IMG/VR virus record: IMGVR_UViG_3300029305_005387
Origin: a virus
Taxonomy: Duplodnaviria; Caudoviricetes
Length of the DNA stretch: 64,000 bases
Direction: 5' to 3' (one strand)
In this document: in pieces, positions 7,113 through 63,517 of the stretch
Layout: every line of letters starts with the position of its first letter
How positions within the stretch are numbered: position 1 is the stretch's first letter
The notes under the pieces: generated by a model
The model's input: the letters and a program-made list of their open reading frames with translations, nothing else
Database searches by the model: none
What the model was told of the DNA's origin: nothing
Translations under genes and position numbers: made by a program

Positions 7113-9380
7113 TTAACGACTAGTTACACCAGAAATAGCAACCCATCCAGGAGCTCTAAATCCATAACCAAATGAAGGATCGTTTTTATATGAAGTATTA
7201 TATACAAACATTACACCTGTAGCTGCATTGATATATAATACCCTCCAAGTGATATCTACTTCAATAACTTCTGAAGTATCTGGATCAATCCTTATATCAG
7301 TAAATCTCCTATCTGGAGTAGGGTCAACTTGATCGATATGAAGATATGGGGTACAAACTGCATTTGGATTATTTGTACTCACAGCATCTGGATTTCTATT
7401 CATTCCATCCATCAATAAATCCATCATGAATTTATAATAGTTATTGAAATTATTTGTATCTCCATTTGAGAATAATAATGCCTTGATATCTCCAGGTCGT
7501 TCAACACCCATAGGACCTTGATCAACCCATTTGCCTGTAAACACTTGTACTCCATCCTGAATTACCCATGTAGGATTTTCAGTATTGATTACATATCTAA
7601 ACAGGTGTACATGAGCACCTGCAGTTGCATTTCCACCATGTTCATATAAAGAAGTACCTGAAGTATTTTCAGATGGACTTGGGCCACCTCTACCAGAGTT
7701 AACTCCAGAGTATGCAGGTCCAGCAGCTGTTGATCTAATCCCAATTTTTCCACCCTGAGAATCAGTTAATTTATTATCGGACCATCTAGTACTATTATCA
7801 GATGCAATAGTAGGAACTACATCTACATATGCATACAAATTATTCTTTAATTGTGTTGCACAGTTTGTAACAATGCCTTTAGATTTTATAGCCAATTTAG
7901 CACCATATCCAGTACTTGAAGTATTAATAAATTCAACACCAATTCCATTTGTAGAAGGATCTTGATCATATACATTATCATTTTTAGAAATATAATGACC
8001 AGATTGAATTTGACCATTTGATCCTACATTAGTAACTTCATATTCAAATGAATCGTCACCAAACGTCCATCTTAATATATCACCTACTTGATATCCTTGA
8101 CCTGAAGATACAAGATAAATCTCTATTTCTGAAGATGGATATACAATATCAATTCTATTATATCTCCATTGATATAATTGAGACCTATCAAATTCATCTG
8201 TTTGAGATAAATCCATATAAGGAACTGGTTCGTATCCTTCAATTGCAACTTCCATATTATTGGGATTCAATGCCATTGCCAAATAAGAATCTTTATAAGT
8301 TATTCTATCAAACCAGTTAGGTGACCATCTACCATCCATGATATAGTAATTATTAGGTCTTCTAGCTCCTGGAGTTTGTGAGTTTGTTCTAGTAGTTTGT
8401 TTTTGACCTACAAGATCCACCTTTTCTAATTCTTCTAATGAACGGAATACTCCAGGTACAAATCCTTCAGAATGGTATACACTGGAAAAGTTTACATTCT
8501 GATTATAAGAATTAACAGCTTCTCCTTGACGTGTACTTCCTGCATCAGTTTGTGTATTTTGTTTTTTACCACCATCTGATTCTCCATATGAAGGAAGACC
8601 ATTTAAACCTGTAAATTGATTTTCAATATATTTTCCTTCTTTATCTTTAGATATTTCAGGATAAACAAAAGTTCTATCATCTAAGTTATCCACAATGAAA
8701 CGGTTAGAATGAGAGAAATTATTGTCAGTATGTTTGTAATCTGGATCTGAAATAAAATTTAAATCATTTACGAGATGTGTGATTCTTGTTGGAATATCGC
8801 AAATACGTGCTACAGATCTTTCTGGAATTTTATTAGATCTAGTTTCATTGTTCACATACGTAGGTTCATCATTGGATAAAAGATATACTCTACCATCGAA
8901 TGGATCAAAAAGCATCATAGCCATTCTATTTTCTGTAGAATCGCTCATATCTTCATTTTCATCTAATCCATAACCAGATTTTCCTTTAATTTTAGCAAGT
9001 GCACCTAAAGTCACTCTATTTACAATATTCTTTTTAGATTCTTCACTAATAGATTTGTCCCATTTTTCAACATTATGAAGAAATCCATATACACCACTAT
9101 CTACATTGATACCAGCATATCCAGCAGATGCTCCATTATCGGCGAATGTATGAATTTCCATTCTTTGATAAAAACCTTCATTATGAACTTCTGCTGCATA
9201 TTTGAATAAACGAGTAGGATCAATATAGTCTACATCTTTATTGACCTTTAAATGCCATCTTAAACGTTCTTGTCGTAATAGTTGTCGTAAACCGTCTGGA
9301 TCTAAATATCTTAGTATCTCTTCAGGAACGACTTTTAATTCCTCTCCACTAGGGAGAATTGTTCTAGACATATAAGCCAC
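7113..9380 (-). CDS. Hypothetical protein, probable virion (tail/baseplate) component
   Basis: 755 aa, G/S/N/T-rich beta-type composition; SSGQGYQVGDIL motif typical of phage structural proteins. Confidence 0.45.
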   Translation of the reverse strand: MAYMSRTILPSGEELKVVPEEILRYLDPDGLRQLLRQERLRWHLKVNKDVDYIDPTRLFKYAAEVHNEGFYQRMEIHTFADNGASAGYAGINVDSGVYGFLHNVEKWDKSISEESKKNIVNRVTLGALAKIKGKSGYGLDENEDMSDSTENRMAMMLFDPFDGRVYLLSNDEPTYVNNETRSNKIPERSVARICDIPTRITHLVNDLNFISDPDYKHTDNNFSHSNRFIVDNLDDRTFVYPEISKDKEGKYIENQFTGLNGLPSYGESDGGKKQNTQTDAGSTRQGEAVNSYNQNVNFSSVYHSEGFVPGVFRSLEELEKVDLVGQKQTTRTNSQTPGARRPNNYYIMDGRWSPNWFDRITYKDSYLAMALNPNNMEVAIEGYEPVPYMDLSQTDEFDRSQLYQWRYNRIDIVYPSSEIEIYLVSSGQGYQVGDILRWTFGDDSFEYEVTNVGSNGQIQSGHYISKNDNVYDQDPSTNGIGVEFINTSSTGYGAKLAIKSKGIVTNCATQLKNNLYAYVDVVPTIASDNSTRWSDNKLTDSQGGKIGIRSTAAGPAYSGVNSGRGGPSPSENTSGTSLYEHGGNATAGAHVHLFRYVINTENPTWVIQDGVQVFTGKWVDQGPMGVERPGDIKALLFSNGDTNNFNNYYKFMMDLLMDGMNRNPDAVSTNNPNAVCTPYLHIDQVDPTPDRRFTDIRIDPDTSEVIEVDITWRVLYINAATGVMFVYNTSYKNDPSFGYGFRAPGWVAISGVTSR

Positions 9381-9480
9381 CTCCGTGAAAAATTATTTTA
9401 TATTCAAAGTATTTCGAATTCTATTTATAAAGGCGGTTGCAATATAACATATATTCAAAATCGTTAAAAATAAGGAGAAT

Positions 9481-9747
9481 ATGAATATGGATGAAAATAT
9501 ACACTCAAGAGATTTAATTGAAAATTTAATACCAATTGAAGAAGTTATTAATGATATGATGCATGAAGATAGTAGTATTGCTAAAAGTGCTAGAAGATAT
9601 TATTATCGTTATTATGCAACACCTGAAGAACGTGAGAAAATGGATGCTGAAGATAGAACTTCTAGAAGATGGATGAGATTATTCCTATTTCTTTATGGAA
9701 TGATATTAGCTACAATAATTATATTTATTATAAAAAGATTTATTTAA
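9481..9747 (+). CDS. Small protein with C-terminal transmembrane helix
   Basis: LFLFLYGMILATIIIFII; RBS aaggag. Confidence 0.6.
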   Translation: MNMDENIHSRDLIENLIPIEEVINDMMHEDSSIAKSARRYYYRYYATPEEREKMDAEDRTSRRWMRLFLFLYGMILATIIIFIIKRFI

Positions 9748-36379: not shown

Positions 36380-37921
36380 TTATCGTTCTGTAAACCCATA
36401 ATCTGTAGCAACAAATTCACCATTTTTTCTGATACCAATATTACCCCAATGGATATCAGTTAGTGATATCTTTAATCCTGCGTTAATTCTTGCATCATGA
36501 ATATCATCTAATAATTTATCATATTTCTTTTGGTGGCTAGAATCATGGCGATCTACAGTATCAGTATCTACCAATTCCATAGATATAACGCATTTATTTT
36601 TAGAAATGTTTTCAACTCTTGTCAACAAATGATCAGAATTATTCTTTTTGAATGCGTCAAATACCATTGCTTCAGCATTATTAGATCTAACACCATATTG
36701 AGATAATGCAACTTTAATAGCTACTGGTTCATTTAATGGGAATAACGCTAATCTTGTTTGACCCATTTTAGGTCTTCGTTGATCTGCATTTCCTCTCATA
36801 CGTTTACTACAAATTGCAAATGTATTCCAAGCAATATATTTTGGAGGAACATTTCCAGTTATACAACCTTCGACGAATTTAGATAAATCTTCATTATTGT
36901 CAATCATCTCTGCATACTTAGCATCTATCTCATAAATATGATTCATACATGTGGTGATAGCGTTAATACCGAATTGAAATCTCCAAGATACATCAGCAAT
37001 GAAATTTAGAGCTTCACGAACAATAACACTGTTTTCACCAGGAATGATACTAGGATCATCATAGAAAGATAATGCCTTATGAATATCTTGAATAACTTTA
37101 TTTACTTCTTCAATATTCTTTATATCTGCAACGAATTTGTTAGGTACAGAAGCACCAGTATTCCAATATTGTTTAAATTTATTCACTTTATTGACAAATT
37201 GAGTTTCATTAAAAATACCACCTTCATATTCTTTAGCATTTAATGAAGAGATAATATCTTTAAGTAGATTTAGTTTATCAGGATTGATAATCATATCAAA
37301 AGTGAATACAATAGCATTCCAAGAATTATTTAACGGAGCATGTCCAGGTACAGCATTTCTACCTCGGTTAACCATATTGGAATCTTGAACATAATTTACT
37401 CGAAATAAAAAAGAACTTCCATCTATTTTACATTGTAAATCTTTATATGCTAATGTGATATTTTCTGTATGATCCGTTTTATCATCACCAACAATTGGAT
37501 TGAATGGAATACTGATAGATTTTTGTTCACTTACACTTTTATTAGATTCCAAAGATTTATCATTTGCTGATATTAATGTCTTTTGTGATTTTATACTTTG
37601 ATTATTAGATGGAGATTTAAATACTTCATCAACAATTGCATCTACACTTTGAGTTTTTCGTTTAAATAAATTTTTAACCCAATTAGTGAAACGATTCCAC
37701 TGTTTTGCAATCCAAGTAAATATCTTTTTAATTGTCTCCATAATACGAGTTATAAGATTTTTCTTTGTAACTGGTTTGGAAGTAGCCTCTGATAAAACTT
37801 CTTCCATATATGATGTTCCATCTTCAAAATAATTAATGAAAACATCTTCCTTTAAAATGTTTTAACATTTTAAAGGATTAAAATCAAATTTTTCATTGAT
37901 TACTAAGTCAATATTATTCAT
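36380..37921 (-). CDS. Head-protein-leader + minimal Ser/Thr-type kinase (kinase A); leader interrupted by in-frame TAA at 37862-37864
   Basis: GQTR..VAIK..NNAE..ISMELV..DIHWGN..TDYG; in-frame ATG at 37921 with aaggagg RBS; leader aligns to kinase B. Confidence 0.75.
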
Positions 37922-37940
37922 TTTATCCTCCTTAAAATAT

Positions 37941-37975
37941 AAAAATAAAGGGATCTAAACAATCCCTTTATTTTT
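37941..37975 (-). terminator. Terminator downstream of the phosphatase
   Basis: aaaaataaagggat-N7-atccctttattttt. Confidence 0.65.
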
Positions 37976-38706
37976 TATGAATAGAATACTTCCATGTCAT
38001 CTAGACGAATACATGACAATCTACCACCATAATTAGGATAAGCTGCTCCACAATCAATTCCAATAATGTCGTTATCTTCATAGATTTCCATTGGAGAAAC
38101 TTTATTTTCATCCTGATGCAAATGGATTGTTGGTGTGTGACCAAATATAAACTTAACCTTTCCTTGTCCTGAATCTGCTAAATAATGTACTGCTTCACGA
38201 TCCCATACGCAGAAGAATGCTTTTGATTCTTTCAAATCGTCTCCAAGTGTTTTCTTGAATTCATTATAAATGATCTCTGGTGCCGCATGACATAAAACAA
38301 ATTTTTTATCTCCAGCTTCAGTAATGATGTTCAAAGGAAGTTTAAGTAGATAATTGATGATTTTAATCTGTTCGTCTTTATTCAGTTTTAACAACGATTT
38401 GTGAGTAATACCTCCTCCATTATGATACCATAGATCACGATCTTCTTTCAGGTTTATAACCTGATCTTTTTCGTATGGAAATCCTAATGAAGACAGCATC
38501 ATGTATTCGTGGTTACCCAAAATCATTTTTGCGTTTGGCATATTCATAATTCTTTGAAGAATATTAATGCCATATTTACCTCTGTCAACTACATCCCCAA
38601 GAATAAATAATTCATCTTCGTCAGAAAAGTTAATCTTCTTGAGAATAGAATTGAACGCCTCTAAGTTACCGTGGATATCTGATAAAACATATTTCATTTT
38701 ACACAT
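37975..38706 (-). CDS. PPP-family (lambda-phosphatase/PrpA-like) Ser/Thr protein phosphatase
   Basis: SDIHG; GDVVDRG; GNHE; W..NGG; HA; FGHTP; IDCGA; likely start at ATG 38697. Confidence 0.88.
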   Translation of the reverse strand: MCKMKYVLSDIHGNLEAFNSILKKINFSDEDELFILGDVVDRGKYGINILQRIMNMPNAKMILGNHEYMMLSSLGFPYEKDQVINLKEDRDLWYHNGGGITHKSLLKLNKDEQIKIINYLLKLPLNIITEAGDKKFVLCHAAPEIIYNEFKKTLGDDLKESKAFFCVWDREAVHYLADSGQGKVKFIFGHTPTIHLHQDENKVSPMEIYEDNDIIGIDCGAAYPNYGGRLSCIRLDDMEVFYS

Positions 38707-38731
38707 CTCCTTTTCTTATTATTCTATATTA

Positions 38732-38739
38732 ATAATATA
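38732..38739 (-). promoter_or_regulatory. TATATTAT early-promoter-like motif for the phosphatase
   Basis: Part of a 29-bp sequence (38712-38740) identical to 61253-61281. Confidence 0.65.
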
Positions 38740-38770
38740 TCTTTCTTAAGAAAAGAGATGCGTTAATCAA

Positions 38771-40246
38771 TTATTTGCTAATTGCTTTAAGAGAAGTTCT
38801 ATGAGTAAAACCATAATCCAGTGCAACTATTTTACCATTCTTTTTACCAACATTGAAAACGTGTAAATCTGTAATAAGGAATGGAATATTATGATCTGAA
38901 ATTAATTGTTGCATTTCTGTTTTCAATTTTGAAATATCGTCCTGTTTCACTTTCAGAGGATGGATAATCTCAACTCGTTCAGAATCAATTATTACATGAT
39001 CATTATAATCTTTATTACAAACTGCAATTAAATGGTCTCCATTATATTTCTTATACGCATCAGATATCTGATGTTCTGAGAAATTACTTCTAATTCCCCA
39101 ACCGGATAATGCAATCTTATGAACAATTGATTTATCTTCAGGGAAGAAAGTAACTCTAGACTGACCCCAGCAAGGTTTATTAGCTTCAGAATCGGTTCCT
39201 CGAATTTTCTTAGAACTAATCAGATATGTGTTATATGAAACATATTTTGAAGGAATACCATTATCAATCATTTTCTTTACAAATTTTGATAATGTTTCAA
39301 CAGAATCAATACTTCCATAATATGATCCATCGATTAAAGCAACTTCCTTCAAAGAACTAGTAATAGCATTCATACACATCTGCATAGCGGCCAATATACC
39401 TGATATTGCATTTAATGTAAGAATAATAAAACTGACATCTCTATCTTCTTTAAATGAAGAGAAAGGATCATCAATCTTTCTAATTATTTGATCTGCTTCA
39501 TTTAAACTTTTCTGAAATGTAATTAATTGATCAATTGTGTATTCAAATGTTTTATTCATTTGATCAAATTTCATTTGTTTATCTGAATACTCTTTAGTAA
39601 ACTTATTACATTTATCCTGTAATTCCTTTGTAATAACATCTGCGTTTACTATCTCATTTAACAGATCTTTGATTTTGTCAAATTCTGCAGGATTTTGAAT
39701 ATATTCCATACATGATAAAAATGGACCCATTGTCATTGGCGTATCCTTATGACCTTTAATTTTACCATGCATTTTATATCCCATTTTCACTGCATTCCAT
39801 ATAAAGTTAAATTTGATCTTTTTATTATCCATAAATTCAACTAGTACTGGTTTACATACTAATTCAATCTCTTCATCAATTTTAACTTCAGAATTATCAT
39901 GTGATGGAATTTTAATTCTCATATTGTTAGCGAAATTTTTATCAACTTCATGTCGAGGAATATTCATTTCTATTGCTAACTGGTCTACTGTCTTCATATT
40001 CTGTCTGAGAATTTTTGTCTTACAGAAGTTAATAAATTTTGTCCATTGTAATGATAGCCAACCAAAAAGTTTTTTGATTAATTCCCATAAACGTTTGAAG
40101 ATATTTTTCTTAGATACAGCTTGTGATGCTTCTGTAATCACATTTTCTAAGAATTGTACACCTTCAGAAAATGAACAAAAATCTTCACGTATCATATCTA
40201 ATGGATCACAGTTAAATGATTCCATAATAAATGCATTTTCGTACAT
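38771..40246 (-). CDS. Head-protein-leader + minimal Ser/Thr-type kinase (kinase B)
   Basis: GQSR..IVHK..NFSE..DLHVFN..LDYG; leader IMES...ITEA followed by amphipathic KNIFKRLWELIKKLFGWL. Confidence 0.78.
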   Translation of the reverse strand: MYENAFIMESFNCDPLDMIREDFCSFSEGVQFLENVITEASQAVSKKNIFKRLWELIKKLFGWLSLQWTKFINFCKTKILRQNMKTVDQLAIEMNIPRHEVDKNFANNMRIKIPSHDNSEVKIDEEIELVCKPVLVEFMDNKKIKFNFIWNAVKMGYKMHGKIKGHKDTPMTMGPFLSCMEYIQNPAEFDKIKDLLNEIVNADVITKELQDKCNKFTKEYSDKQMKFDQMNKTFEYTIDQLITFQKSLNEADQIIRKIDDPFSSFKEDRDVSFIILTLNAISGILAAMQMCMNAITSSLKEVALIDGSYYGSIDSVETLSKFVKKMIDNGIPSKYVSYNTYLISSKKIRGTDSEANKPCWGQSRVTFFPEDKSIVHKIALSGWGIRSNFSEHQISDAYKKYNGDHLIAVCNKDYNDHVIIDSERVEIIHPLKVKQDDISKLKTEMQQLISDHNIPFLITDLHVFNVGKKNGKIVALDYGFTHRTSLKAISK

Positions 40247-40262
40247 TTCATTTCCACTCCTT

Positions 40263-41588
40263 CTATTCTAGATTATATATCTCTTTGATCATATTGTTAA
40301 TATAATCATGTGATACTGTTATGAGAAGACGGTAAGTTCTATGTTGATCCGGATTAGTCAGATGCAACTCCCTTTTATACCAATCAATATAGAACATCTC
40401 ATCATCTAAAATTTTTCCATTCTCACGGAATTGAATTTTAATAAATCTATCCATTGGAATCCCATATTGTAGATGATAATCAATTACAGCATTTAATGAC
40501 TGATTTAAAATATTTTCAATTGAAATAGAACTTTCTTCCATTTTCAATTTGAATATAGGCCATCCTAAAATAGTCCATCCAACAGGGATTTCAAAATCAT
40601 CAAGATTAATTACGTCTGAAAACATTGGTACAATTGCTTTATTTTCATCATTATTATTTACTACCACAGATTTTTTCAAATCAGGAGAATTTAGTGTGAA
40701 ATAACCAATTGTATTAAACTCACAGCGTACAGTAAATGTGATATCAAAGTTCCTTCGTACTTGTCCATCTTTTACTCCAGGTCCTGCTTGAGGGTCTTGA
40801 ATAACTGTATCAATATCAGCAATGTAATACATAAAGAATTCATCTGAATTAGATCCCCCTTTGAGTTTATACGTAATAGGATGATAAAACATACTATTCA
40901 TCAATGTTAAGAAATCATAAACAGAATTATTTTCATCCTTTACTGGAACTTTAGATAGATTTCCAACTAATTCACAGAATCTCTCAGGAATATACAATTC
41001 TAATGGAGCTTTAATGAATTGATTATGTCCAATTGGAAGTGTATTGAATAAATAAGACATCCAATTGATTTGTTCTGAATAAGTATTAAACGATAATACT
41101 ACATCCACATACATAACAGCACGATTATAATGTCCATGAATATATAGATTCTTTTGACGATGTTTAGCTAATTCTATTAATGATCCATCTCCCCATAATG
41201 CATGAGTATTAGTAATTCTACTATTAAGTAGAGTATTTCCAAGAAAACGATTGTCTTCTTGACCAAATACAACTCTTGGAACTAATACCATCATAGGACA
41301 TTCTTTTTTGTGTAATTGATGAGGTAAATGATTTAACTGTCTACTTGCAAGTGTGGTACTAGCAGTAACTGTCTTAAATAAATCTGCTGGAAATACGTCT
41401 AATAAATACTTTTCTACTACACTTAACACATTTCCATATGTATGAGCAGCAGATGTATTACAGATAGCAGTTGTATTTCGTATATGCTCTCCATATGCAG
41501 CTCCGCTATTCTTTTCATATTGCATTCCAACTTCTCTTATTTCAGGATTCGATTTATTAGGATTTACCTGATAATCACGTGGTAACAT
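40263..41588 (-). CDS. Probable neck/tail-completion structural protein (T4 gp15-like?)
   Basis: 441 aa in structural cluster; PMMVL...VDVVLSF..YSEQ...FDITFTV pattern. Confidence 0.4.
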   Translation of the reverse strand: MLPRDYQVNPNKSNPEIREVGMQYEKNSGAAYGEHIRNTTAICNTSAAHTYGNVLSVVEKYLLDVFPADLFKTVTASTTLASRQLNHLPHQLHKKECPMMVLVPRVVFGQEDNRFLGNTLLNSRITNTHALWGDGSLIELAKHRQKNLYIHGHYNRAVMYVDVVLSFNTYSEQINWMSYLFNTLPIGHNQFIKAPLELYIPERFCELVGNLSKVPVKDENNSVYDFLTLMNSMFYHPITYKLKGGSNSDEFFMYYIADIDTVIQDPQAGPGVKDGQVRRNFDITFTVRCEFNTIGYFTLNSPDLKKSVVVNNNDENKAIVPMFSDVINLDDFEIPVGWTILGWPIFKLKMEESSISIENILNQSLNAVIDYHLQYGIPMDRFIKIQFRENGKILDDEMFYIDWYKRELHLTNPDQHRTYRLLITVSHDYINNMIKEIYNLE

Positions 41589-42624: not shown

Positions 42625-43683
42625 TTATGCCTTTTTGCCGTCCTTTGCACCAGAACCGATTTTAGTTTTGATGTAACCTTCTAATGCATTCAACATTCTC
42701 TTACGATAGCTCAGATATCTACTATATACACTAATTGTAGCTCCAACACAACCTACGATAGTTGTATAAGCTTCATTCATCTTAGCAATATCTTCTGCAT
42801 TAGGTGTTTCACCTTCAGCTGCTTCAGCAGGCTGTAACATCTTTTCGATTTCAGGTTCCAAAGCTTTAAGCTTGTCTACGAACTTCTGAATCTTATCATA
42901 ATTTGCCTGAATCATTAATCCGGAATGCTGTACATTCTTACTTGCACCCAAAATAAGATCTTTAACGTTGTCCATATGGTATTTCTTTTTACCCTTAACC
43001 ATCTTCTGGCAAACCTTGATCAAGTCTTCAATAGGAATAGCACAAACATCTGTACTACCACCAGAAGATCCATTCAACTTAACAAGTTCATTAGAAAGAA
43101 CTACACACATGTAGAATTCAAACAAACCTAAATCATTACCCTTAGGTGCATCAGCAGCATATTTCAACTTCAACTGATCTCTGAAAGGCTGATACTTTCC
43201 ATGATAAGGAACTGTATTATCCTGACCATCTGCTTTATCGTTCCAGATATCTCCCTGAATCTTATTGATTGTTTCAATATCTTCTCTAGTTAATTCAATA
43301 CCTCTTAAAGATTCAAGAACTTTGTTAGACTGCTTACCAACGTCCGTTAAAGAAGCTGCACATTTAGAGAAGAAGTTAATGACGTTTCTCCACAATTTTC
43401 TGAAACCATTTCTAATTTTTGTAATAATAGAAACTTTCTTAGCTTCTTTAGCTTCCATAATAGACTGAACAGTTGCATCATCAACAGATTCAGCAAAGAA
43501 GCTTTCAGTCAAAGTAATGTTTTCTTTGGTAATCTTTTCCTGCTGTTCCTGCATAAATTCCTGATTCTCTAAGAATCTTTCCATTACAGAAAGTTCAGAG
43601 CATTCTTTAAAAAGGTCGTACGCCTCATTGGAATGAGGATACATACTACATTCAACTACAAGGTCTTTGTAAGTCTGTGCCAT
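42625..43683 (-). CDS. Internal head protein (phiKZ internal-protein-like architecture)
   Basis: Acidic leader with LTES, FAES, IMEA, then amphipathic KIRNGFRKLWRNVINFF. Confidence 0.6.
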   Translation of the reverse strand: MAQTYKDLVVECSMYPHSNEAYDLFKECSELSVMERFLENQEFMQEQQEKITKENITLTESFFAESVDDATVQSIMEAKEAKKVSIITKIRNGFRKLWRNVINFFSKCAASLTDVGKQSNKVLESLRGIELTREDIETINKIQGDIWNDKADGQDNTVPYHGKYQPFRDQLKLKYAADAPKGNDLGLFEFYMCVVLSNELVKLNGSSGGSTDVCAIPIEDLIKVCQKMVKGKKKYHMDNVKDLILGASKNVQHSGLMIQANYDKIQKFVDKLKALEPEIEKMLQPAEAAEGETPNAEDIAKMNEAYTTIVGCVGATISVYSRYLSYRKRMLNALEGYIKTKIGSGAKDGKKA

Positions 43684-44500: not shown

Positions 44501-46837
44501 TTATTGTTCAACTTCCTTCAGATCTTTTTCTTCAATATTGAACTGATTTACTTTGTTCTGTAAAACGTCATCATTAGAATCAATATTAACCTTATTAATG
44601 ATCTCATCCAATTCATCGAAATCAAATTGAGCTAAATATTTCTTAGCCAACTCTCTTCTCAGATTAATTTGTTTCACAGTAGGATTTCCATCTTTGTCTT
44701 CCATTTCATTTTTAGGATAGTAAATCGCCATAACCATTTCAACCATACTATTGAAGTTTGTGATCATTTCGGATGTAATTACCAATTCTTGTTGTTTGAT
44801 CTCATTAAACTTAAATTTGAAACCATTGATGACCTCTGCAGGCATATCAGTACTACTTCTCATAATAGCTTGATATAATTTAGTTAAACCTCTATTCATA
44901 TCAATTTTATATGAAGATACAGTTGATAAGAATCTTGTATTTGCCATTTCCAGAGTTTTAGCAAAATCAACTTCATCTATTGCATTAATGATTAACAAGT
45001 GAGGTACACCTGTACCAGATAATGCCTGTCGTCTTTGTTGTTCTAGGAATTCAATGTTGATTGGATTTGGAACAGCTTCAATTGTATCAGTTTCTAATGC
45101 CTTATAATCGTTACGACCAGCAGGAAGAACCATTTCTCCCATACCACCGACTTTATTTAACACACCTGAATAGGAATAAATATCATCAATGGTAATTCTT
45201 CTCTGTTGGAACTTTCTCATAGTTCTCTGAATCTGGGAAGCATAATCTTTATTTAATCCAGATGATTTTAAGTAGTGAATTCTAGTCGTATTATTATTCA
45301 ATGTATAAAGCATATTATACATATTTAACATTAAATACATACGAGCTGGGAATAAACTAGGTTCAAGAACAGAATGTCCTCTTCCTTCTTCATCTTCATT
45401 AATAATGAGACGAATTACTTCATTTTCTGGGATATAAATAAAGGAAAGTTTTCCTTCAGAGAATTTATGTGCCATTATGATTTCAGCAATTTCATTCTTC
45501 AACTTAATGTTTCTTTCCAACATTTTCTTGTCGAATGACTTGATAATCATATTAGCTAATCTATCAACCATATTACGATCTCTCACATAATTCTGATATG
45601 ACAGATCAACTATACCATTTGGATTAGCAGAGTTTGTCTGTAAGTCCATTGTAGTAGAAATGTAATAATAACCAATTACACGTCTATCCATACGAATTGG
45701 AACAATTCTTAATCCGTCAAGATACTTTATATAACATCCTTTAATTTCAGAATATGAACTGAAATCAATTGCATCCTGATCAATATTAGCATATGTACCT
45801 TGATTAACTCTGCCATAGTTAGCTTGTGCTTCCATGAAGTGCTGTCCAGGATAATTGGAACTTTTTGTAGGTCGTGTTTCTTTATATTCTTTTAACACTA
45901 ACTCAGCAAATCCTTCTGGACCCATTTCTGACATCATTATTGAAGAATGATTATACACTTCAATATTTTCAAGAATGCATCGCATGTTATTCTTAGTAAC
46001 TTTATCAGGATTGAAATCATTTCCACTAATTCCAATTTCATTTTCAGAAACCTTTTTATCATCTGAAGAATCTACTTTACTAATGGATGATACAGATTCC
46101 ATTAAAATATTTAAATTTTCTTCAGAATACAAAGATTTCGAACCACTGAAACTACTCATCACGTGATTTGGTATACTTTCTCTAAAAGTTTCACCTAATG
46201 CAGAAACTTTTTTATTTTTATTTTTACCACCAGAAAATCTAGAATCATGTATAGATTCTAATTCTGCAAATAGTTTTGCATATGGAACTACTTGGATATA
46301 CATCTCTCCATGCATTAATGTTTTAGGAACAATAAAATTCTTAATAGCCATTAATAAATCATGACGAGTTTCAATTTCTTTAGCTTGTGTTTCAAAACTT
46401 TCATCATCTTCATGATTTTCAAATAATAAAGTTCTTGAAACTTCACCAGTTGAAACATTGCATTCAATGATTGAATCTCTTATAACATTTATAACATCAT
46501 GCATTTCAGGCATCTGAGTGCAGATATTATAAATATCTCTTCTTAACAACAATTCACTTTGATTCAATGTATCAGCTGACAAATAATCCGTTTTAATGTT
46601 ATTTAAAACATTCTTCATCATTGATTTATCATGTTTTTCATCGAGATCAATATCTCTCATCTTTTTGATAAATCCTTCATCATCAAATGTAGAAGAATTG
46701 AAAGTTTTTAAAGCTTTATTCAATGTACTTGTAAATGAAGATGAAATATTATCCAGATCATCTTCTTGTATATTACCAACATCCTTAGTTATATCTGCTG
46801 ATAATTTATCAATAAAATCATTTAAATTTGCAGGCAT
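44501..46837 (-). CDS. Portal protein (T4 gp20-like)
   Basis: QMPEMHDVINVIRDSI; HGEMYI; SVLEPS...; DTIEA..IEFLEQQRRQALSGTGVP. Confidence 0.7.
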   Translation of the reverse strand: MPANLNDFIDKLSADITKDVGNIQEDDLDNISSSFTSTLNKALKTFNSSTFDDEGFIKKMRDIDLDEKHDKSMMKNVLNNIKTDYLSADTLNQSELLLRRDIYNICTQMPEMHDVINVIRDSIIECNVSTGEVSRTLLFENHEDDESFETQAKEIETRHDLLMAIKNFIVPKTLMHGEMYIQVVPYAKLFAELESIHDSRFSGGKNKNKKVSALGETFRESIPNHVMSSFSGSKSLYSEENLNILMESVSSISKVDSSDDKKVSENEIGISGNDFNPDKVTKNNMRCILENIEVYNHSSIMMSEMGPEGFAELVLKEYKETRPTKSSNYPGQHFMEAQANYGRVNQGTYANIDQDAIDFSSYSEIKGCYIKYLDGLRIVPIRMDRRVIGYYYISTTMDLQTNSANPNGIVDLSYQNYVRDRNMVDRLANMIIKSFDKKMLERNIKLKNEIAEIIMAHKFSEGKLSFIYIPENEVIRLIINEDEEGRGHSVLEPSLFPARMYLMLNMYNMLYTLNNNTTRIHYLKSSGLNKDYASQIQRTMRKFQQRRITIDDIYSYSGVLNKVGGMGEMVLPAGRNDYKALETDTIEAVPNPINIEFLEQQRRQALSGTGVPHLLIINAIDEVDFAKTLEMANTRFLSTVSSYKIDMNRGLTKLYQAIMRSSTDMPAEVINGFKFKFNEIKQQELVITSEMITNFNSMVEMVMAIYYPKNEMEDKDGNPTVKQINLRRELAKKYLAQFDFDELDEIINKVNIDSNDDVLQNKVNQFNIEEKDLKEVEQ

Positions 46838-60701: not shown

Positions 60702-61238
60702 TTAATCTGTATAACAGTTAACCCACTTATATTTCCACATATTTCCAGCACCTGTGATCACTGCATAATCCTGATATGGATGTTCCTGATGTTCTCTTGT
60801 GTCATGATTATTTTCTTTCAAGAAATCGATAAATTCCTCACGAGTAATGTCTCTGTCGAATGTAAAATCAATCATTCGATATCCGTCTCCATAATGAATA
60901 TGTTTAACAGAAGTCTTTTCGTCAATTACCTTGAAAGGAATCTTTTCAGGAACAACTTTTTCATCTTTAATACACTCAGATGTAGGAATTAAACTGTACA
61001 CGTTAATGAGATCATAAATAGAACCGGACTCTGTAATGATAGTAATGCCATTTTGTAACTTTTCGACATGAACAACTTTTGTTGTCAACCAGATACATTC
61101 GTTGTTAGTAATATCGATAAAACCAGCACGTTTGTAGTAGTCATCATGAACTTTGCTATTGGATTTAACTTTAAACAGTTTACCATTGAGAATCGCTTTG
61201 TCACCACTGAGTGGATTTTTAAGTGTATAAATATTCAT
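60702..61238 (-). CDS. Hypothetical early protein
   Basis: 178-aa ORF; TATATTAT at 61273-61280 (minus). Confidence 0.6.
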   Translation of the reverse strand: MNIYTLKNPLSGDKAILNGKLFKVKSNSKVHDDYYKRAGFIDITNNECIWLTTKVVHVEKLQNGITIITESGSIYDLINVYSLIPTSECIKDEKVVPEKIPFKVIDEKTSVKHIHYGDGYRMIDFTFDRDITREEFIDFLKENNHDTREHQEHPYQDYAVITGAGNMWKYKWVNCYTD

Positions 61239-61303
61239 ATTTTATACCTACCTTTCTTATTATTCTATATTAATAATATATTAGAGAATTATAAGAATAT
61301 ACG

Positions 61304-62656: not shown

Positions 62657-63517
62657 TTATTTATTAAACCAGTCTTTTAGCATTGATTGTGTTTTATTAC
62701 GAATGAATCTATCATTGATAGGCTGAACGTAAGTATTAGCTCCTTCGGTGATTACGACTGAATTACCTGTTGAAGTTAAACCAACAATATCTTTTTCGTC
62801 TAAACCAAAAGATTCACATATCCAATTGGCTTCTCTTGAATTAGCAGCAGCCATTTTTGCAAGTTCAGGTAAAAAGATAATTGTGCAACCAAGCTGTTTA
62901 GAAGCTTCTTCTACAGACTCCTGAATTGGTTGATTAATTTTAGCTTGTGCGAGTTTATGTGAGGGGTACAATACCCAGTCATATCCGATTAATTTTCGGA
63001 CTCGGACCACTGGTTTTCCATAAGTATTGTCAAGAGAGCCTAATACCCTAGCACTAAAGCATGGAATGATTTTTCCATCAACAATTTTAATAGCCATATT
63101 CATACCTGCATCAGTACCTGAATCTGTTTGAATAGATGCTTCAAGAAGATTACCAACGAGACGAGGTCTTCTAATATAATGAGAAGATCTTGTCATATCT
63201 ATATTTGATATACGTTGAATAGTTAATTCTTCACCTTGATATGCTGGAGTAGGATGATCAATCTCACCCATCCATGAATTTTGTTTCAACATAGATTGAA
63301 TATAATCATCATTATTGATACAATCCATAATATTTTGAGCTTCATAAATACGTCTATTTCTATTTTGATCACCAAAAGATTGAAGAACAGCATCAAATGT
63401 AAGGTAGAATCTATTACCTCTATCATGGACTTCATATCCAAAATTTCCAGCGTAGTCATCATCAAAAGAAGTCTGCTCATGTATATAGCAAAGTGTATTT
63501 AAATCAAGTTTTTGCAT
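62657..63517 (-). CDS. Prohead core protease (T4 gp21-like)
   Basis: LQ...NRNRRIY; GEIDHP; SHYI; FSARVLGS; YDWVLYPSH. Confidence 0.82.
   Translation of the reverse strand: MQKLDLNTLCYIHEQTSFDDDYAGNFGYEVHDRGNRFYLTFDAVLQSFGDQNRNRRIYEAQNIMDCINNDDYIQSMLKQNSWMGEIDHPTPAYQGEELTIQRISNIDMTRSSHYIRRPRLVGNLLEASIQTDSGTDAGMNMAIKIVDGKIIPCFSARVLGSLDNTYGKPVVRVRKLIGYDWVLYPSHKLAQAKINQPIQESVEEASKQLGCTIIFLPELAKMAAANSREANWICESFGLDEKDIVGLTSTGNSVVITEGANTYVQPINDRFIRNKTQSMLKDWFNK

Follow-up and report, generated by a model that had tools for sequence, protein, structure and literature searches.

Why would a jumbo phage carry, among its head genes, two genes for kinase-like proteins with a phosphatase gene between them? 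The question is raised by positions 36,380 to 40,246 of a 64,000-nucleotide stretch of viral DNA (Duplodnaviria; Caudoviricetes; IMG/VR virus record IMGVR_UViG_3300029305_005387), hereafter the window, whose source is an uncultured animal-gut jumbo phage. An earlier note on this DNA had proposed that the two proteins are packaged in the head and injected to phosphorylate host targets, and that an early-expressed phosphatase then reverses or limits this. Here, we describe the two proteins, K1 and K2, the phosphatase, and their relatives in other phage contigs (designated by L numbers). Both open reading frames (ORFs), 36380-37807 and 38771-40246, are present as that note described them and are full-length paralogs, aligning end to end with 29% identity (E 3e-52). 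Their C-terminal domains are, as modelled, kinase folds with a full catalytic set, and K1 and K2 are, judging by sequence comparison, members of a large family of jumbo-phage proteins from the head module that has so far gone without annotation. The best explanation of the whole, namely head-module kinases that are packaged, trimmed and ejected, alongside a phosphatase made early, we consider on balance somewhat probable.

Kinase domain

In K1, a variable middle separates a basic Trp/Lys helix (~13-49) from a helical pre-domain (~260-339) and the minimal kinase domain behind it (~340-475), and in K2 an acidic leader (1-39) and a basic Trp/Lys helix (44-80) precede a minimal kinase domain at ~350-486. 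The chains end 4 residues (K1) and 12 residues (K2) after the DYG triplet. The size first given for both proteins, about 490-510 aa, fits K2 at 491 aa and has to be lowered for K1, whose open frame encodes 475 aa; the kinase motifs first noticed are present in both proteins and are kept across relatives. Conservation was checked first in 13 relatives from a word-indexed search and then in 62 diverse ones, with K1 numbering. The catalytic residues of K1 are K365 (beta3 Lys), E379 (alphaC Glu), D451 and N456 (catalytic loop), and D469 (the Asp of DYG). Of these, K365, E379, N456 and D469 do not vary among the 62 diverse members, nor do the G and R of GQxR, and the catalytic Asp and His are kept in at least 90%. 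The spacing from D451 to D469 is 18 residues, equal to that from D166 to D184 in protein kinase A. Across 136 family representatives, the tail after DxG has a median length of 7 residues and is at most 15 residues long in 91%.

The earlier note had proposed AlphaFold and Foldseek as a check on the C-terminal domain, and this check returned a kinase fold. The model of K1 residues 260-475, built on 62 sequences, has a predicted local distance difference test score (pLDDT) of 96.4, and Foldseek gives 93 PDB matches for it at E <= 1e-3, with kinases making up all 50 of the 50 matches listed (best Rio2, 5e-5; OspG, 6e-4). The full-length model has a pLDDT of 70.7 overall and of ~90 over its last 130 residues, and its first Foldseek matches are OspG, NleH1/2, Rio2 and PRPK. 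A wide search with VIA-align, which is independent of Foldseek, found 95 chains at Z >= 8, led by ULK4 (10.8), an aminoglycoside phosphotransferase (APH; 10.3) and Rio2 (10.2), and a second look found 483 chains at Z >= 8, led by CDKL1 at Z 12.5 with a root-mean-square deviation (rmsd) of 2.7 over 126 residues. All VIA-align alignments reach the last residue of the model, which falls at the DFG region of the target, so the domain comprises an N-lobe plus the catalytic and Mg-binding loops, and nothing after them. PDB sequence matches are few and weak (14-16), all of them kinases, and in register on the catalytic loop and DFG. Both marks of the protein kinase-like (PKL) superfamily, the fold and the catalytic residues, are thus present in the model and sequence, with no C-lobe beyond DFG. 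Ahead of the N-lobe, three helices (K1 260-338) have invariant residues of their own and form part of the conserved unit; they may be a partial stand-in for the role of the C-lobe. A kinase domain that terminates right after its DFG-equivalent motif is of structural interest in itself.

Size and spread of the family

By exhaustive profile search at E <= 1e-3 the family numbers 521 clusters at 50% identity, and for 212 of them the match is as strong as E <= 1e-30. Nearly all members are 470-580 aa long with the domain at the extreme C-terminus, they come from viral or metagenome contigs only, and wherever the ESM Atlas gives taxa for neighbour clusters, these are 100% viral. In GTDB genomes, a pattern scan gave 31 matches, with no relative of the family among them. 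As whole proteins, K1 and K2 have no Pfam match; searched by itself, the K1 domain scores 23.9-25.2 bits against ABC1 (PF03109; cutoff 22.9), with partial coverage (profile positions 113-215 of 244). For K2 and 60 further members Pfam gave nothing, no match to RIO1 was obtained, and K2 residues 361-485 match phrog_4301, listed as of 'unknown function', at 3.4e-14. Because only K1 reaches Pfam, and the one PHROG match of a family of this size carries no function, annotating the family would change how the head modules of many metagenomic jumbo phages are read. A tree of the kinases resolves only two pairs, K1 with a 505-aa protein of L014 and K2 with a 503-aa protein of L002.

In the distant IMG/VR jumbo contigs L016-L023, two or three kinase paralogs form tandem arrays (for example L022 9059-14053), and before or after these arrays come non-kinase proteins that share the leader and helix module, one of 1396 aa and another of 1020 aa. 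Weak matches to the kinase profile were also seen at G003 9234-9551 and G004 40112-40423 (the records behind L019 and L022), with E values of 7e-4 and 1e-5; they cover profile positions 101-207, lie in ORFs of 284 aa and 387 aa, and may be divergent kinase-like genes. Structural neighbours of the kinase domain in the ESM Atlas include a 191-aa Bacillota cluster of unknown function (TM 0.62/0.69) and, as a lead only, short APH-annotated mini-kinases, some of them fused to PP2C phosphatases in Planctomycetota. Both groups resemble the truncated domain and may be its cellular counterparts.

N-terminal module and head-gene context

An N-terminal module made up of an acidic leader, a hydrophobic-x-E-A-S/T site and a basic Trp/Lys helix is found in 127 of 133 full-length members. 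The putative cleavage site has Glu at P1 in 80% of members and Ala at P1' in 65%, with Ser or Thr at P2'; about half of the members have the motif L-E-x-F-x-L-D-P, and the helix follows the rough pattern K-K-N-I-F-x-K-I-W-x-x-I-K-K. Between this module and the kinase domain, family members have a variable helical middle. The acidic leader followed by a Trp/Lys helix, first ascribed to both proteins, is as described in K2, where residues 1-39 hold 9 acidic residues and 1 basic residue, I-T-E-A stands at 37-40, and the helix is rich in Lys and Trp. K1 as called has a leader of 7 residues only, MEEVLSE, placed directly before the Ala of the site.

The K1 leader is short because of an in-frame stop. 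From the ATG at 37921, the sequence reads 19 codons of the family leader, meets a TAA at codon 20 (37862-37864), and continues in frame into K1. The TAA lies in the loop of a perfect 13-bp hairpin (37848-37877, minus strand; -14.2 kcal/mol, z -3.6) that was flagged as terminator-like. Stop and hairpin are identical in five other assemblies (L005-L009), the identical K1 protein is carried by 9 contigs, and in L014 the K1 ortholog keeps its 505-aa frame intact. Re-initiation or readthrough may yield K1, possibly without the targeting part of the leader.

The leader had also been reported from a non-enzymatic ORF nearby (42625-43683), which matches the Pfam family of phiKZ internal proteins (phiKZ_IP). 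What the two groups share is the x-E-A/S site and the basic amphipathic helix; the N-terminal acidic segment of the ORF is of a different sequence family. Comparison by hhalign of the kinase N-termini with the group of this ORF gave a 92% probability (E 5.8e-7) over only 36 columns, which are those of the helix, and the group has its own invariant E, then S or A, 15-20 residues before the helix. A hidden Markov model (HMM) of the kinase N-termini also matches non-kinase neighbours in internal-protein-like gene arrays elsewhere, at 1e-6 to 1e-3, and K1 and K2 themselves have no match to PF12699. Given the shared helix module and these HMM matches, the kinases are best read as proteins of the internal-head-protein type with an enzymatic C-terminus.

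The portal homolog marks a head module by sequence, and the K1 and K2 genes sit in it (Table 1), in the order portal, 236-aa ORF, phiKZ_IP-type ORF, 150-aa ORF, 128-aa ORF, 441-aa gene, K2, phosphatase, K1 and 279-aa ORF. The 441-aa gene is kept at 56-72% identity in all close relatives, the gene order recurs in relatives, and its phiR1-37 homolog g272 is annotated as 'phage structural protein' in its record and confirmed by mass spectrometry. The phiR1-37 genes g271 and g270, which occupy the slot after g272 and are structural according to the record, do not resemble the kinases, the leader module or the 279-aa ORF. The prohead protease is the likely enzyme for the proposed Glu-specific cuts in head proteins. 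Prohead proteases of T4 and phiKZ cut after Glu in motifs of this kind. The same is reported for the prohead protease of SPN3US (PMC10052503). Cleavage after Glu in K1 and K2 is accordingly a prediction drawn from the motif, the protease gene and analogy. The T4-type prohead protease family PF03420 had no match in four related records, nor in any control genome, which makes that search uninformative.

The window has a G+C content of ~31%, and its proteins show distant homology, at 21-26% identity, to those of AR9/PBS1, Staphylococcus S6-like and Yersinia phiR1-37 jumbo phages. Besides the head genes it encodes GroEL, NrdD, an amidase endolysin and an RNA-polymerase-like gene. Near-identical DNA occurs in at least 8 metagenome runs from animal faeces or gut, from several studies; among GenBank phages, blastn found no match to the 3.9-kb locus region, nor to the window as a whole.

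Table 1. Coordinates in the window of the kinase and phosphatase genes, their signals and the neighbouring head genes.
Feature	Position	Strand	Remarks
K1	36380..37807	-	475 aa; C-terminal minimal kinase domain
K1 ancestral leader remnant	37808..37921	-	ATG 37921 behind AAGGAGG (strong ribosome-binding site)
Intrinsic-terminator-like hairpin and T-run	37941..37975	-	Directly after phosphatase stop codon
Phosphatase	37975..38706	-	243 aa; PPP-family lambda-PP/NinI-like Ser/Thr phosphatase
Early-promoter-like motif AAAGATATATTAT	38732..38744	-	12/13 positions of AR9 early consensus AAATATATATTAT-N6-G
K2	38771..40246	-	491 aa; start 16 nt after upstream 441-aa structural gene
441-aa structural gene	40263..41588	-	Directly upstream of K2; homolog of phiR1-37 g272
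phiKZ_IP-type non-enzymatic ORF	42625..43683	-	Pfam phiKZ_IP (PF12699), 37.2 bits (cutoff 27)
Portal vertex protein homolog	44501..46837	-	tblastn to annotated portals of the Staphylococcus and Bacillus jumbo phages Machias, Internexus and BpSp
Head maturation (prohead) protease	62657..63517	-	286 aa; phrog_3014 3.4e-25, phrog_207 1e-12

The phosphatase and its transcription unit

The phosphatase has the motifs GDxHG, GDxVDRG and GNHE of a PPP-family, lambda-type enzyme, and matches Pfam Metallophos (52.8 bits; cutoff 21.5) and phrog_246 (NinI-like; 5e-49). Its full-length alignment to lambda phosphatase (PDB 1g5b; 3e-13) spans residues 6-195. Orthologs in L003, L004 and L014 are 42-52% identical.

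Its own upstream motif and its own terminator are both present where the earlier note had placed them (38732 and 37941-37975). The core of the motif, TATATTAT (38732-38739, minus strand), lies 25 nt upstream of the phosphatase start. The early promoter of AR9, which is read by the virion RNA polymerase (RNAP), has been defined experimentally as AAATATATATTAT-N6-G (PMC5312081). The exact 13-mer stands at the phosphatase ortholog of L014, the ortholog of L003 has TATATATTAT, and analogous terminators follow the phosphatase unit in both contigs. No early-type motif precedes K1 or K2. With motif and terminators at the phosphatase and its orthologs, and no such motif at K2, an early phosphatase and late kinases are a reasonable inference by analogy with AR9, and the first description of the phosphatase as an early unit holds to that extent: it is a separate unit with an AR9-type motif and a terminator, arranged in the same way at the L003 and L014 orthologs.

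Window-wide, TATATTAT is not enriched (15 found, 18 expected), and its placement is non-random: 11 of the 15 copies are intergenic, though only ~10% of the window is non-coding, and 10 copies lie 24-84 nt upstream of a gene on the same strand. Sites include 2341, 28598/28602, 33649, 38732, 50164, 52915, 56904, 61273 and 62597, and the genes downstream of the upstream-placed copies include NrdD, the phosphatase and several unknowns; the family scans picked out no head or virion gene among them. For sigma-70-type promoters the window shows no enrichment (40 found, 40.4 expected), and matches to the AR9 late motif AACA-N6-T[A/G] upstream of structural genes are too short to tell from chance.

The upstream-placed copies of TATATTAT, being the core of the AR9 virion-RNAP early promoter, offer a provisional map of early genes in the window. 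Two near-identical stretches of ~28 nt (38712-38740 and 61253-61281, minus strand) contain TATATTAT and then taatatagaataataagaaa; they cover the promoter and 5' regions of the phosphatase and of a 178-aa gene (60702-61238), respectively, which suggests a duplicated or mobile promoter cassette. At L014 8790-9100, in the closest relative with the kinase-phosphatase-kinase order, a small extra ORF stands between the phosphatase and the terminator, giving a bicistronic early unit there.

Proposed mechanism and alternatives

The favoured explanation would run as follows. K1 and K2 would be synthesised late, together with the head proteins, and the N-terminal module, with its acidic propeptide, cut site and basic helix, would target them into the prohead. 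There the head protease (62657-63517) would trim the leader between Glu and Ala of the hydrophobic-x-Glu-Ala-Ser/Thr site, in the manner of T4 gp21 and phiKZ gp175, leaving the basic helix on the mature protein. The kinases stored in the capsid would be ejected with the DNA, refold, and act on their host targets by phosphorylation ahead of all phage gene expression, and the phosphatase, made from its own early unit with an AR9-type virion-RNAP motif and a terminator, could be a brake on, or a reversal of, kinase action. Late expression, packaging, cleavage, ejection, protein substrates and the interplay of kinase and phosphatase are steps that we infer; packaging and ejection of K1 and K2 are plausible from the sequence of their N-termini and neighbours. 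If K1 and K2 are packaged and ejected, they would be the first class of kinases that a phage capsid delivers in finished form, and would act before phage gene expression, when the incoming genome is most exposed to host defences.

Several findings weigh against this explanation, and they touch delivery, substrate and pairing with the phosphatase in turn. As to delivery, tblastn of GenBank phage records with K2 gave no match, and the kinase-domain profile detected nothing in the full records of AR9, phiR1-37 and UFV_DC4, which have virion proteomes or transcriptomes. The short cleavage motif could be a helix cap, and K1, with its leader mostly lost and two terminator-like hairpins upstream, may be poorly expressed or unpackaged. 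K1 and K2 might not be ejected effectors at all, acting instead in assembly or late infection on head, scaffold, inner-body or host proteins, with an N-terminal module that merely tethers them to the prohead or a membrane. We think this unlikely. It would accord with a head-module location without an early motif, which suggests late expression, with a conserved basic amphipathic helix that would remain on the mature protein and could anchor it to membrane or DNA, and with a K1 that has lost its leader here and yet keeps an intact, widely sampled ORF; it accounts less well for the homology between the helix modules of the kinases and of the neighbouring phiKZ_IP-matching ORF, or for the tandem arrays that the kinase genes form with genes for other proteins bearing the leader. 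Moreover, so extreme a reduction of the kinase fold has parallels in injected OspG and NleH and in the truncated kinases of polyvalent proteins, which are predicted to be injected (PMC5512222).

As to substrate, the fold modelled here does not settle the class, since APH and Ark1 share it with protein kinases, and the domains might phosphorylate something other than protein, for example nucleotides, RNA (tRNA included), a lipid or cell-wall precursor, or small molecules that resemble antibiotics. The catalytic loop reads D-x-H-x-G-N, a motif of ABC1, APH and YihE-type kinases, and K1 is the member that reaches Pfam ABC1. In VIA-align, aminoglycoside phosphotransferases (Z 10.3 and 10.1) and the archaeal RNA kinase Ark1 (Z 9.7, rmsd 2.6, 18% identity) score on a par with protein kinases, the Atlas neighbours are short APH-annotated bacterial proteins, and the domain has neither an activation segment nor a GHI subdomain for peptide docking. 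ArkI is described as a reversible tRNA 2'-kinase (PMC9095486). Protein kinases can nevertheless do without both of these elements, as OspG, NleH, Rio and Bud32 do; the best single matches are protein kinases (CDKL1 and ULK4 in VIA-align, Rio2 first in Foldseek), the authors who described the truncated kinases of polyvalent proteins placed these nearer to protein kinases (PMC5512222), and a Ser/Thr-type phosphatase adjoins the kinases in three lineages. A non-protein substrate is, in our estimate, improbable; the best single matches, the likeness to OspG and NleH as minimal injected kinases, and the phosphatase next door incline us towards proteins.

As to pairing, the order kinase-phosphatase-kinase is kept in L014/L015 (K1 44% and phosphatase 52% identical), and phosphatase-kinase-kinase is found in L003/L004. 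A synteny search of the kind that the earlier note had suggested thus finds the genes together in three related lineages, counting the window, and in those three only: no phosphatase was detected near the kinases of L001, L002 and L016-L023, which have one to three kinases each. Two 100%-complete jumbo genomes (294 and 231 kb) with 2-3 kinases each have no phosphatase homolog at E <= 0.001. Conversely, NinI-like phosphatases of the same type occur in 321 GenBank phage records, from phages of Escherichia, Enterococcus, Clostridioides, Vibrio and others, none of which is matched by the tblastn search with K2, and the best of these matches, from a 75-kb Oscillospirales phage (46.6% identity), is as close as the L003 ortholog. 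A tree of the phosphatases is a polytomy that does not separate one acquisition from several. The phosphatase could on these grounds be a 'moron', an accessory gene that arrived in the head module with a promoter and terminator of its own and works independently of K1 and K2; its targets would then be host phospho-signalling, a host kinase-based defence, or nucleotide or RNA-end substrates, and its PPP-family relatives include ApaH, with a weak match to the phosphatase domain of bacterial polynucleotide kinase-phosphatase (Pnkp). Such a self-contained unit would still have had to land, by a chance that seems unlikely, in a 2-3-gene slot of a genome of ~250 genes or more, and the phosphatase is found inside the kinase cluster in three lineages, at phosphatase identities down to 42-52% and in two gene orders; in L002, whose kinase is nevertheless sister to K2, both the phosphatase and the K1-type paralog are missing.

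Weighing the few lineages with adjacent genes, the two complete genomes and the 321 phage records, we put an independent role for the phosphatase at about an even chance, and regard a true coupling of kinase and phosphatase as rather doubtful. The phosphatase may limit or reverse kinase action; the evidence fits an independent accessory gene equally well. The dedicated switch of the earlier note is weakened in the same measure, keeping its support from adjacency in three lineages and losing it wherever kinases occur without the phosphatase. Its full form, in which injected kinases would modify host proteins within seconds, for shut-off or anti-defence, and a phosphatase made by the virion RNAP would erase or bound this modification, all from one cassette, seems less likely again than coupling as such, and quite improbable. 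If that timed switch were real, an entire unrecognised family of ejected jumbo-phage kinases, with more than 500 clusters, would stand behind it. The pairing allows a simple genetic test by toxicity and rescue.

Comparison with known systems

A precedent for a phage kinase that phosphorylates host proteins is T7 gp0.7, which is an early gene product and not a virion protein. The Pfam model of the T7-kinase family was outside the profile set used, and no sequence match of K1 or K2 to that family was obtained. For the phosphatase the counterpart is lambda phosphatase (NinI), to which it aligns full length with all PPP motifs; to our knowledge, neither lambda nor T7 pairs a kinase with a phosphatase. 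With the phiKZ-type internal head proteins (PF12699) and the internal proteins of T4, the kinases share, by way of the phiKZ_IP-type ORF, the x-E-A/S site and basic helix, a head-gene array and the presence of a head protease; they differ in that K1 and K2 themselves fall below PF12699. A limited search of the literature turned up no paper in which an internal head or ejection protein of a jumbo phage carries a kinase domain.

Among kinases of cellular origin, the effectors OspG, NleH1 and NleH2 of Shigella and E. coli (PDB 4q5h, 4bvu, 4lrj and 4lrk) are the top Foldseek matches of the full-length model (TM by target 0.46-0.50), are likewise reduced to catalytic essentials, and are injected into a target cell. 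They are only 11-18% identical in sequence, with no homology detectable at the sequence level, and they travel by type III secretion into eukaryotic cells, whereas the route proposed for K1 and K2 is through a phage tail into bacteria; OspG, in addition, needs E2~ubiquitin as activator. Rio1 and Rio2 (VIA-align Z 10.0-10.3) and Bud32/PRPK (9.8-10.0), with Rio2 giving the best Foldseek E value, are alike in having no activation loop and in having helices ahead of the N-lobe. These cellular factors of ribosome biogenesis or of KEOPS differ in keeping C-lobe helices after DFG, the point at which the K1/K2 family ends.

The closest parallel is the Kinase-PolyVal family (PF18762), a monophyletic group of C-terminally truncated kinases in phage polyvalent proteins that Iyer et al. 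(2017) predicted to be injected with the DNA (PMC5512222). The earlier note knew of no described phage system with this architecture, a claim that has to give way in so far as truncated, predicted-injected kinases have been known since 2017, and that stands in so far as PF18762 is unmatched and both architecture and phage group differ. In both cases the entire C-terminal kinase subdomain is lost with the residues for ATP binding and phosphotransfer intact, as the short tails and conserved catalytic set of the K1/K2 family illustrate, and in both the prediction is that a phage-encoded kinase enters together with the DNA and modifies proteins of the host (PMC5512222). Kinase-PolyVal is also among the nearest named clusters by Atlas features (score 0.87), as a lead only. 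Membership in PF18762 was considered and rejected, there being no HMM match at E <= 10 in five family members (K1, K2 and three relatives), and a six-frame search of five related phage records with the same model gave no match. Kinase-PolyVal domains are parts of multi-domain polyvalent proteins, mainly in Verrucomicrobia-Chlamydia and Bacteroidetes (pro)phages, whereas the K1/K2 family has a single catalytic domain behind an internal-protein-type leader, has the motifs GQ[ST]R, D-x-H-x-G-N and DYG, and occurs in gut jumbo phages distantly related to AR9 and phiR1-37. At the level of sequence and gene content, then, K1 and K2 share with the polyvalent-protein kinases a truncated design and a predicted logic, and are new in their internal-protein-type leader, their single catalytic domain and the phage group that carries them.

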